Of a DNA stretch of 21,692 bases, positions 14,393 to 15,325 are shown piece after piece. The position numbers were made by a program, and so were the translations under genes. The first letter of the stretch is position 1. Every line of letters starts with the position of its first letter. Under the pieces are notes generated by a model. That model was not told the origin of the DNA, did no database searches, and was given only the letters and a program-made list of their open reading frames with translations. The DNA comes from a virus (taxonomy: Duplodnaviria > Heunggongvirae > Uroviricota > Caudoviricetes), in IMG/VR virus record IMGVR_UViG_2562617086_000013; one strand, 5' to 3'.

Positions 14393-15325
14393 GTCAGCAC
14401 CTAGTGGTTTGTCGTGGTGTCAATTGTGCTGTGATGCATACAAAGCTGCCATTGAACGCCATTGTGCGAGCGACAAGACAAAGACTGAACCGCCCCGGAC
14501 CTCTTTTGGCTAGCCAGAAAAGGCCTCGTTTAACTAAGGCTGTTTCAGACTTACCTTAACTATTCACTACTATTCACTTAGGTAAAAAAAATAGGTAATA
14601 CAGAAGGTTATAAGGTGAAGGGTTGGCATGGCAGTATTCATCGACTGTTCATAACTGTTCACATGGGAATAAAATTATTTATGGTATTTTTTCATAATGG
14701 GTGGTTTTTTTATTCCTCGTAGCTATTTGTTTTTTGCTCCTCACCACTATTCACCCTTATTCAGGAGTATTCAACAGGCACATAAATAGACTGCATGTTT
14801 TTGCCGGGGAATAACATTTTCGCCTCTGGCCATGGTGTTGCATTTCATACTGATTTTTATAAAACTAGATCTGTCCGGTTCTTTATGGATTCATTCGGAT
14901 ATATTTTACGATTTAAGGTGATGTTATTTAATATCAAGGTTTTTATGCAGGCCCAATGTTTATAAGTTGGATGCGATTCAAAAATATGCCCGGAAATTGG
15001 GGCCTGCAATGCAAGGCCTCGTGTAGAAGTTGTACTGCCTTGCTGTATTGGCGGTGGGGTTAGCACTATCAGGTGCAATGACCCATAGGATAGTAAACCC
15101 TGGGTGAATGGTAGTTCCTATTAATGCTCCTGTATTTATAGTCCGCAGGCATGGTATTTATTATGTCATTTTATATGGTTTAATCGGGCTTTAAATTCCA
15201 TAAAATCAATATGTGACGCTAAATAAAAAATGCGTGCGCAGGTGGTTTATATACACATAATAAGGAACTACCTGAACCCGGATAAATTCATCCGGACTGT
15301 TGTGGAAATTAAAGAGGGTAGATAA
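14393..15325. promoter_or_regulatory. divergent control region between the late (sid) and early (alpA-alpha) operons; repeat-rich, probably promoters and possibly a small RNA
   Basis: 933 bp with no convincing ORF; tandem ACTATTCACT x2 (14559-14578) plus three more TATTCA copies (14746-14775); 11-bp inverted repeat GCAGGCCCAAT / ATTGGGGCCTGC (14947-14957, 14996-15007); AAGGCCTCGT at 14520 and 15012. Confidence 0.4.

Follow-up and report, generated by a model that had tools for sequence, protein, structure and literature searches.

The 933 bp at positions 14393-15325 of a 21,692-nucleotide stretch of viral DNA (IMG/VR record IMGVR_UViG_2562617086_000013; the whole stretch is called the window below) are very probably the origin of replication (ori1) and the late-promoter region of Sp2, a P4-like satellite prophage of Escherichia coli O157:H7. 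The region, which we call the gap, lies between the genes for a Sid-like protein and for AlpA/Vis. It is 100% identical to E. coli O157:H7 chromosomes and matches 320 E. coli records (318 of them over at least 80% of its length), and RefSeq annotates no feature within it in any of the 320. In strain Sakai it corresponds to positions 317257-318189, between ECs_0298 and ECs_0299 in “prophage Sp2, P4-like phage.” By its sequence the gap is of a known kind, P4 ori1 plus late promoters, found in an unannotated member that carries a clade-specific expansion. The region left blank in these records can now be read with confidence as a P4-type origin together with the Sp2 late promoters. Nothing here will surprise a P4 specialist; the annotation may be of use in engineering P4-like satellites and in asking whether O157 satellites still replicate.

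A sequence-only reading of the window, made without database searches, had described the gap as an unusually long control region without genes, had listed its repeats, and had proposed these as analogues of the P4 RNA-immunity elements or as signs of a small RNA gene. The features it described are all present, at or within 1-7 bases of where it placed them, and our results support a control region between a leftward late operon (sid-psu-delta/ogr) and a rightward operon (vis-...-alpha). The proposed roles of the repeats are a different matter, as the comparison with P4 makes clear.

Iterons laid out as in P4 ori1

Eight same-strand copies of T(A/G)TTCA occur within 213 bp of the gap, where the rest of the window would predict 0.16 (Poisson P = 1E-11). 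None of 20000 shuffles of the gap reaches eight, and this family, with a spacing of 10-11 bp, is the sole repeat class in the gap above chance. The sequence-only reading had noticed the tandem ACTATTCACT (two copies at 14559-14578) and three further TATTCA copies (14748, 14758 and 14768), all of which we find. To these we add a TATTCA at 14635, TGTTCA at 14646 and 14656, and an inverted copy, GGTGAAGG, at 14614-14621.

In the GenBank record of P4 (NC_001609/X51522) the 552-bp gap between sid and orf88 is annotated as “origin of DNA replication” and contains six 8-bp “ori type 1 repeats” and three 10-bp “type 2 repeats”; type 1 repeats are also annotated in crr, the cis-required replication region downstream of alpha. 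The gap in the window, likewise located between sid and orf88/vis, has the same layout of two direct iterons, an AT-rich spacer containing GTAATACAG, one inverted iteron and three direct iterons. Spacing and distance from sid agree as well: the distances from the start codon of sid are 169, 179, 222 (inverted), 243, 254 and 264 bp in the window and 170, 180, 224 (inverted), 245, 256 and 266 bp in P4. Read in window orientation, the P4 module is ACTGTTCACCTCTGTTCACC - TTAATAAAAAAGATAAGTAATACAGTAAGTTAAAG - GGTGAACA - ... - ACTGTTCACCGTCTGTTCACCACTGTTCACC and that of the window ACTATTCACTACTATTCACT - TAGGTAAAAAAAATAGGTAATACAGAAGGTTATAA - GGTGAAGG - ... - TATTCATCGACTGTTCATAACTGTTCACA, and the two can be aligned at the level of single bases. 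The inverted iteron aligns with the inverted type 1 repeat GGTGAACA (P4 9353-9360), and AATACAG in the spacer is kept across genera. Both elements use one iteron family (TGTTCACC in P4, T(A/G)TTCA(C) in the window). Because of this position-for-position match to annotated P4 repeats we read the T(A/G)TTCA(C) repeats as origin iterons, the counterparts of the P4 ori type 1 repeats. A blastn search of the gap against phage records in distant mode gave no match, since the module shared with P4 is short and has diverged beyond the reach of blastn. What revealed the homology was the annotation of P4 together with direct alignment. The dyads of the sid promoter (Psid, described below) align with P4 as well.

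The module is widespread. We collected 80 loci with relatives of alpha, one genome per species, and could delimit the sid-vis gap in 62 sequences, P4 and the window included. In most of the 62 the iteron is the 7-mer that occurs most often in the gap (GTGAACA/CTGTTCA, 4-6 copies), and about 35 other species share the layout of two direct, one inverted and three direct iterons at nearly identical coordinates, while more distant genera have variant iteron cores, e.g., CTTCACC in Pantoea. Across the 62 loci the commonest gap 7-mer occurs at 2.5 per kb in the kilobase downstream of alpha and at 0.2 per kb elsewhere, with at least two matches in that kilobase in 32 loci. This recurrence is the signature of ori plus crr. 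Two features hold across the family: the iteron module varies strikingly little, in itself and in its distance from sid, and a second site carrying the motif follows alpha. Both could serve as a non-coding signature for finding P4-like elements. In an alignment of 11 non-redundant members of the clade of the window (see below) the iterons are among the best-conserved blocks of the gap.

The element also encodes a cognate initiator. Residues 690-789 of its alpha protein match the P4 alpha origin-binding domain (PDB 1KA8) over all 100 residues (phmmer E-value 9.5E-46), and Pfam identifies Zn_Ribbon_Prim, Toprim_3, D5_N and Pox_D5 domains in the protein. A part for alpha in P4 origin recognition is named in the title of a paper in EMBO J (Ziegelin et al. 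1993, as cited in PMC8628076). The TATTCA repeats are most likely binding sites of the element's own primase-helicase and not targets of RNA immunity. A crr-like unit lies downstream of alpha, with T(A/G)TTCA matches at 20419, 20431, 20468 and 20502; TATTCACC and CTTCACC also occur as iteron variants in P4 crr. The window has one such unit and not two, displaced from alpha by an ORF (open reading frame) of 318 amino acids (19161-20117, minus strand), which is AT-rich and has no Pfam match. Judged by high iteron counts elsewhere in the locus, crr is apparently displaced from alpha in several other P4-like loci too.

Other differences from P4 ori1 are known here from sequence: the gap is 933 bp long compared to 552 bp, its iterons are more degenerate, a second iteron triplet stands about 85 bp beyond the first module and is followed by an AT-rich spacer of about 400 bp, and there is a single type 2 copy. 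That decamer occupies a position homologous to the P4 array of three 10-bp type 2 repeats. The type 2 repeats of P4 are not known to have an established role, and their reduction here is not taken to exclude a P4-type origin. Between Psid and the iterons lies a conserved palindrome, present as GGC(A/T/C)AGCCAG in P4 and in Pantoea/Erwinia elements. Compared with the iteron origins of plasmids and phage satellites in general, the gap shares phased direct repeats beside AT-rich DNA, an element-encoded initiator and copy-number changes by whole units. In contrast to these origins, the initiator is not of the Rep/RepA type but a fused primase-helicase with a C-terminal winged helix, and the distant second site (crr) belongs to the P4-type system.

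Probable late promoters at both ends of the gap

Activators of the Ogr/Delta type recognize a TGT-N12-ACA dyad, and in the late promoters of P2 and P4 this dyad stands at -55 from the transcription start. Upstream of sid the window has two exact dyads, both of which align with the two P4 Psid dyads and are conserved in relatives. The proximal one aligns with P4 TGTGACGTACACCGGACA and is conserved in the long-gap clade; a box about 40-44 bp from the sid start codon is found in P4 and in 14 of 60 other related loci, and one at about 78-84 bp in 36 of 61 other P4-like loci. By analogy with P2 and P4 we infer the same -55 register for the Psid dyads. At the other end, no 30-bp bin of the gap is better conserved (0.94) than the core of the predicted rightward late promoter PLL, and this core has homologues in P4 (CACAAAATAAAGCGCTACCCGAA) and in every short-gap relative. 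A core with a -10 element and no -35 element, shared with the P2/P4 late promoters, fits an activator-dependent promoter. A CCGG...CCGG hairpin follows at the same place in P4 and relatives, with different loop and stem bases. The sequence-only reading had put forward Delta/Ogr-activated late promoters as one analogy with P4; the two boxes upstream of sid bear this out. At PLL, unlike in the P2/P4 late promoters, no convincing dyad was found. Exact dyads at PLL were found in 6 of the 62 loci, P4 included. A conserved TTGCAT...TAAAAC at 14838-14865 was not called as a promoter, as it lacks the invariant last T of the -10 element. In Klebsiella sp. BIGb0407 a second copy of the PLL core and leader (AAAATAGAGAGCTATCC...GAGGTAGCCC) stands about 300 bp from the first (3826-4688 of locus L032), and the gap of that element reaches 863 bp because of this duplication.

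The flanking genes are those of a P4-like element (Table 1). Leftward, Pfam identifies an Ogr/Delta zinc-finger protein (90 amino acids), Psu and the Sid-like protein; rightward follow AlpA/Vis (63% identical to P4 orf88), an Ash/Icd-like ORF, DUF5375 and the alpha primase-helicase. The activator of the window is a single-domain Ogr-like protein of 90 amino acids, compared to the 166 amino acids of P4 Delta (PMC2669165), and the operon order is sid-psu-ogr where P4 has sid-delta-psu. The Sid-like protein is recognized by the Psu Pfam model only (E-value 7E-10), and a tblastn search with it against phages, P4 Sid among them, gave no match at an E-value of 1E-5. Its RefSeq names vary (“septation initiation protein,” “hypothetical protein,” “phage capsid assembly protein”).

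By analogy with P4, the parts would act together as follows. After derepression or helper infection, Delta/Ogr bound to the boxes would activate leftward transcription from Psid (sid-psu-ogr/delta) and rightward transcription from PLL through vis, the immunity RNA and alpha. Alpha would bind the iterons of ori and crr through its C-terminal winged-helix domain, open the adjacent AT-rich DNA, load itself as helicase and prime bidirectional replication. This scheme draws on the annotation of NC_001609, on Ziegelin et al. (1993) to the extent cited in PMC8628076, and on the wider P4 literature.

Table 1. Features of the gap and of the surrounding element, by position in the window
Feature	Position	Strand	Description
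Sid-like ORF	13640-14392	-	250 amino acids; left border of the gap
Delta/Ogr box 1, sid promoter	14425-14442	.	TGTGCTGTGATGCATACA, exact TGT-N12-ACA; centre 42 bp from sid ATG
Delta/Ogr box 2, sid promoter	14463-14480	.	TGTGCGAGCGACAAGACA; centre 80 bp from sid ATG, 38 bp from box 1
Palindrome	14507-14517	.	TGGCTAGCCAG; between Psid and the iterons; conservation of at least 90% across 11 aligned clade sequences
Origin iterons 1-2	14559-14578	+	tandem ACTATTCACT x2; TATTCACT cores at 14561 and 14571
AT-rich origin spacer	14579-14613	.	contains GTAATACAG; aligns with P4 TTAATAAAAAAGATAAGTAATACAGTAAGTTAAAG
Inverted iteron	14614-14621	-	GGTGAAGG, i.e., CCTTCACC on the minus strand
Origin iterons 3-5	14635-14663	+	TATTCATC, TGTTCATA, TGTTCACA; spacing 11 and 10 bp; clade-conserved
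Second iteron triplet, clade-specific	14737-14775	+	CTCCTCACCAC-TATTCACC-c-TTATTCAGG-ag-TATTCAAC; spacing 10 bp
Clade-specific AT-rich non-coding spacer	14776-15170	.	holds GTTGCATTTCA, the inverted repeat 14946-15008 and the second AAGGCCTCGT (15013)
ori type 2-like decamer	15188-15197	+	GCTTTAAATT; single, non-tandem; 1 mismatch to GCTTTAARTG
PLL core, rightward late promoter	15255-15276	+	ACATAATAAGGAACTACCTGAA; -10-like CATAAT at 15256-15261; no good -35
Leader hairpin	15278-15295	+	CCGGAT-N6-ATCCGG; upstream of the vis start codon
AlpA/Vis ORF	15326-15586	+	86 amino acids; right border of the gap
isrK (homologue of an Hfq-binding leader)	15658-15735		Rfam isrK RF01394, 72 bits; downstream of vis
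C4/CI antisense RNA	15804-15891		Rfam C4 RF01695, 84 bits; downstream of vis
Origin-binding winged-helix domain of alpha, C-terminal	18705-19004	+	residues 690-789 of ORF 16638-19028; presumed iteron reader
crr-like unit, single	20416-20540	.	GGTGAACAG, GTGTTCAC, TGAACAG, A/T run; aligns with each 120-bp P4 crr repeat

The insert of the long-gap clade

That the gap is unusually long is confirmed by the family: at 933 bp it is the longest of the 62, whose median is 541 bp. Long gaps are shared by the O157 element, its relatives with 84-92% identity, and two further types from E. coli: one is about 75% identical and has a gap of 913 bp, and the other, O26/CRE1540, is about 60% identical, with gaps of 905-914 bp. 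One element from Scandinavium, with 917 bp, also belongs here. Among short-gap elements, those closest in Sid and Psu are from Pantoea (534 bp). These and P4 align to both ends of the gap and do not contain roughly 14700-15170. The extra DNA, about 380 bp compared to P4, is, as the alignments indicate, an insert of one clade comprising several E. coli lineages and Scandinavium. Three Pantoea loci with apparently long gaps (L046, L047 and L049) have a small unlisted ORF at the sid end and are not of the true long-gap type.

The insert is AT-rich (35-42% GC) and resembles neither the rest of the window nor P4, except for the second iteron triplet, which has a weak match to P4 ori/crr. The iterons of this triplet (TATTCACC, TATTCAGG and TATTCAAC at 14748-14775) are kept in all three sub-clades, and we infer that they add alpha-binding sites. 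In the O26 strain RM8426 (L085) the second cluster, aligned to 14746-14775 of the window, has four copies and in CRE1540 (L087) three, a difference of exactly one 10-bp unit between gaps that are otherwise 99% identical; such a one-unit insertion or deletion is the change expected of iteron arrays. A conserved 11-mer, GTTGCATTTCA, lies at 14837-14847, and the least conserved part of the whole gap is 14977-15066. The clade, with its second triplet and single crr unit, offers a natural variant for the effects of iteron number and ori-crr spacing on P4 replication. Elsewhere the gap has been disrupted: in E. coli FELIX_MS533 (L086) an IS1 element interrupts it at about window position 14907 and the vis-alpha half of the element is missing, and in strain F6321 only its first 74 bp are left, under an annotated SDR oxidoreductase gene.

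No conserved or annotated gene lies in the gap, as had been claimed, though four ORFs of 56-73 amino acids in the mechanical ORF list touch it. ORFs of at least 25 amino acids keep neither their frame nor their ends across five clade members, and ten translations from the gap had no match to Pfam or PHROGs at E-values up to 0.1. A hidden gene was rejected on these grounds.

Immunity RNAs, alternative readings and the state of Sp2

The real P4-type RNA immunity region of the element is at 15658-15891, downstream of vis, where both the C4 and isrK RNAs are present as in P4; nothing in the gap matches or complements them. Both RNAs lie inside an ORF (15583-16140) that RefSeq calls “host cell division inhibitor Icd-like protein” (Pfam: Ash). 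At the gathering thresholds Rfam reports only ALIL, C4 and isrK in the whole window, all outside the gap, and a scan of the gap at E-values up to 10 gives just two chance matches, none below E = 5. The gap has no complement of at least 9 nt to the CI RNA. The only complement to a CI loop, CTTATTGGA, is at 15927-15935, downstream of the gap.

These results make it very improbable that the repeats are RNA-level immunity elements (targets of the CI RNA like seqA/seqC) or that the gap encodes a small RNA, the two roles that the sequence-only reading had proposed. That P4-type immunity exists in this element speaks for such roles, as do some weak signs of conserved folding. We ran RNAalifold on 120-nt windows of a 7-sequence clade alignment, on both strands and against column shuffles, and a few windows fold somewhat better than the shuffled alignments; the best z-scores, -3.6 and -3.5, come from 42 window/strand tests under a lenient null. 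An AT-rich hairpin at 14666-14716 (GGAATAAA/TTTATTCC) shows a single compensatory change (G-C to A-U) in sub-clade C but is broken in sub-clade B. The inverted repeat that had been noted at about 14947-15007 has perfect 9-bp arms (14946-14954 and 15000-15008) with 45 nt between them, extending to about 12 bp with one bulge; it acquires A.C mismatches in close relatives without compensatory changes, and is absent from sub-clade C. Conserved structure was rejected as evidence for an RNA gene. The duplicated decamer AAGGCCTCGT is there too (14520 and 15013, 493 bp apart). A perfect 9-bp inverted repeat with a loop of at most 60 nt arises in 24% of dinucleotide shuffles of the gap and an exact non-overlapping 10-mer repeat in 44%, and both features are most likely due to chance. 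Whereas the T(A/G)TTCA iterons are conserved among relatives, the inverted repeat and the second decamer copy are not, and they sit in the least conserved stretch of the gap. Promoter-like matches (6, compared to 3.3 +/- 2.2 in shuffles) and terminator-like matches (1, compared to 1.5) do not exceed shuffles. Rightward transcription from PLL would miss most of the gap, which is upstream of the PLL core, and the Hfq-CRAC small RNA tables for O157 Sakai have no entry at the gap coordinates, which is weak negative evidence. Equally hard to credit is that the T(A/G)TTCA repeats are operators for a regulator of the divergent late promoters, either Vis/AlpA or Delta/Ogr, in place of iterons. They do have divergent, regulated promoters on either side, Vis binds DNA and regulates the late promoters of P4 (“excisionase and transcriptional regulator” in NC_001609), and direct repeats phased at 10-11 bp would also suit cooperative repressor binding. 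Yet the motif family recurs downstream of alpha, far from the late promoters, both here (20416-20510) and family-wide, and the P4 annotation calls these repeats ori repeats. The repeats begin about 90 bp beyond the distal Delta box and lie about 500-700 bp from the PLL core, which places them poorly for an operator, and Delta/Ogr sites have a different dyad form, TGT-N12-ACA, that is present separately.

It is possible, though we doubt it, that the extra 380-450 bp are a decayed gene or the remnant of a mobile insertion without present function, and that the origin itself is perhaps decaying in a fixed defective prophage. The low GC content of the extra DNA, its absence from P4 and the nearest short-gap relatives, its lack of likeness to the window or P4 outside the iteron triplet, the poor conservation of its middle (14977-15066), the IS1 tolerated in the gap of another strain, the failure of Sp2 to replicate in Sakai and the interrupted integrase in the window would all agree with decay. 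On the other hand, no ORF remnant or protein-family match is found in any frame, three sub-clades with no more than 60-75% identity have all kept a length of 905-933 bp, and blocks inside the insert (the second triplet and GTTGCATTTCA) are conserved in all sub-clades. The kept length and the conserved blocks argue for constraint on at least part of the insert. It is tempting to suppose that the insert is a functional addition to the origin, such as a second alpha-binding array sharing the role of the reduced crr (in looping or copy-number control), the template of an unannotated transcript, or a region bound by a host factor and acting on PLL. We regard this as unlikely.

Several observations weigh against the assignment of the gap to a P4-type origin with late promoters. 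Its iterons are more degenerate than those of P4, as only four of the eight direct copies have T(A/G)TTCAC and only one has TGTTCAC. The P4 type 2 array (three GCTTTAAGTG-like repeats) is not kept in the gap, and the count of the motif in the window is at chance level. The crr-like unit is single where P4 has two, has degenerate iterons, and is separated from alpha by 1.4 kb that include an inserted ORF. The sole candidate for a Delta box at PLL (15212-15229) is a TGT-N12-AAA with one mismatch, is about 7 bp closer to the -10 element than in P4, and the clade does not conserve its TGT. No functional part is assigned to about 400 bp of the gap. Finally, in O157 Sakai treated with mitomycin C, Sp2 was found neither to circularise nor to replicate or be packaged, and Sp13, the P2-like helper of Sp2 in that strain, is defective (PMC2669165). 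Because of the inactivity of Sp2 in Sakai, the defective helper, the degenerate iterons, the single crr unit and an integrase gene interrupted by an insertion sequence (IS), the origin may be intact in sequence but idle in this host.

An IS3-family insertion of about 1.3 kb (7153-8460; ORFs at 8080-8406 and 7193-8083, both on the minus strand), found in neither Sakai nor TR01, lies in the Sp2 integrase gene, and this copy of Sp2 probably cannot excise. The ALIL frameshift pseudoknot reported by Rfam (8009-8125, 121 bits) is inside this insertion. Positions 782-2655, inverted with respect to Sakai and TR01, are the invertible tail-fibre region, under pinE control, of Sp1, a neighbouring lambda-like remnant. 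In the hotspot between the integrase and ogr/psu genes (9518-11218), RefSeq names “ABC-three component system” proteins and an AAA ATPase, which look like defence-island cargo of the kind typical for P4-like satellites.

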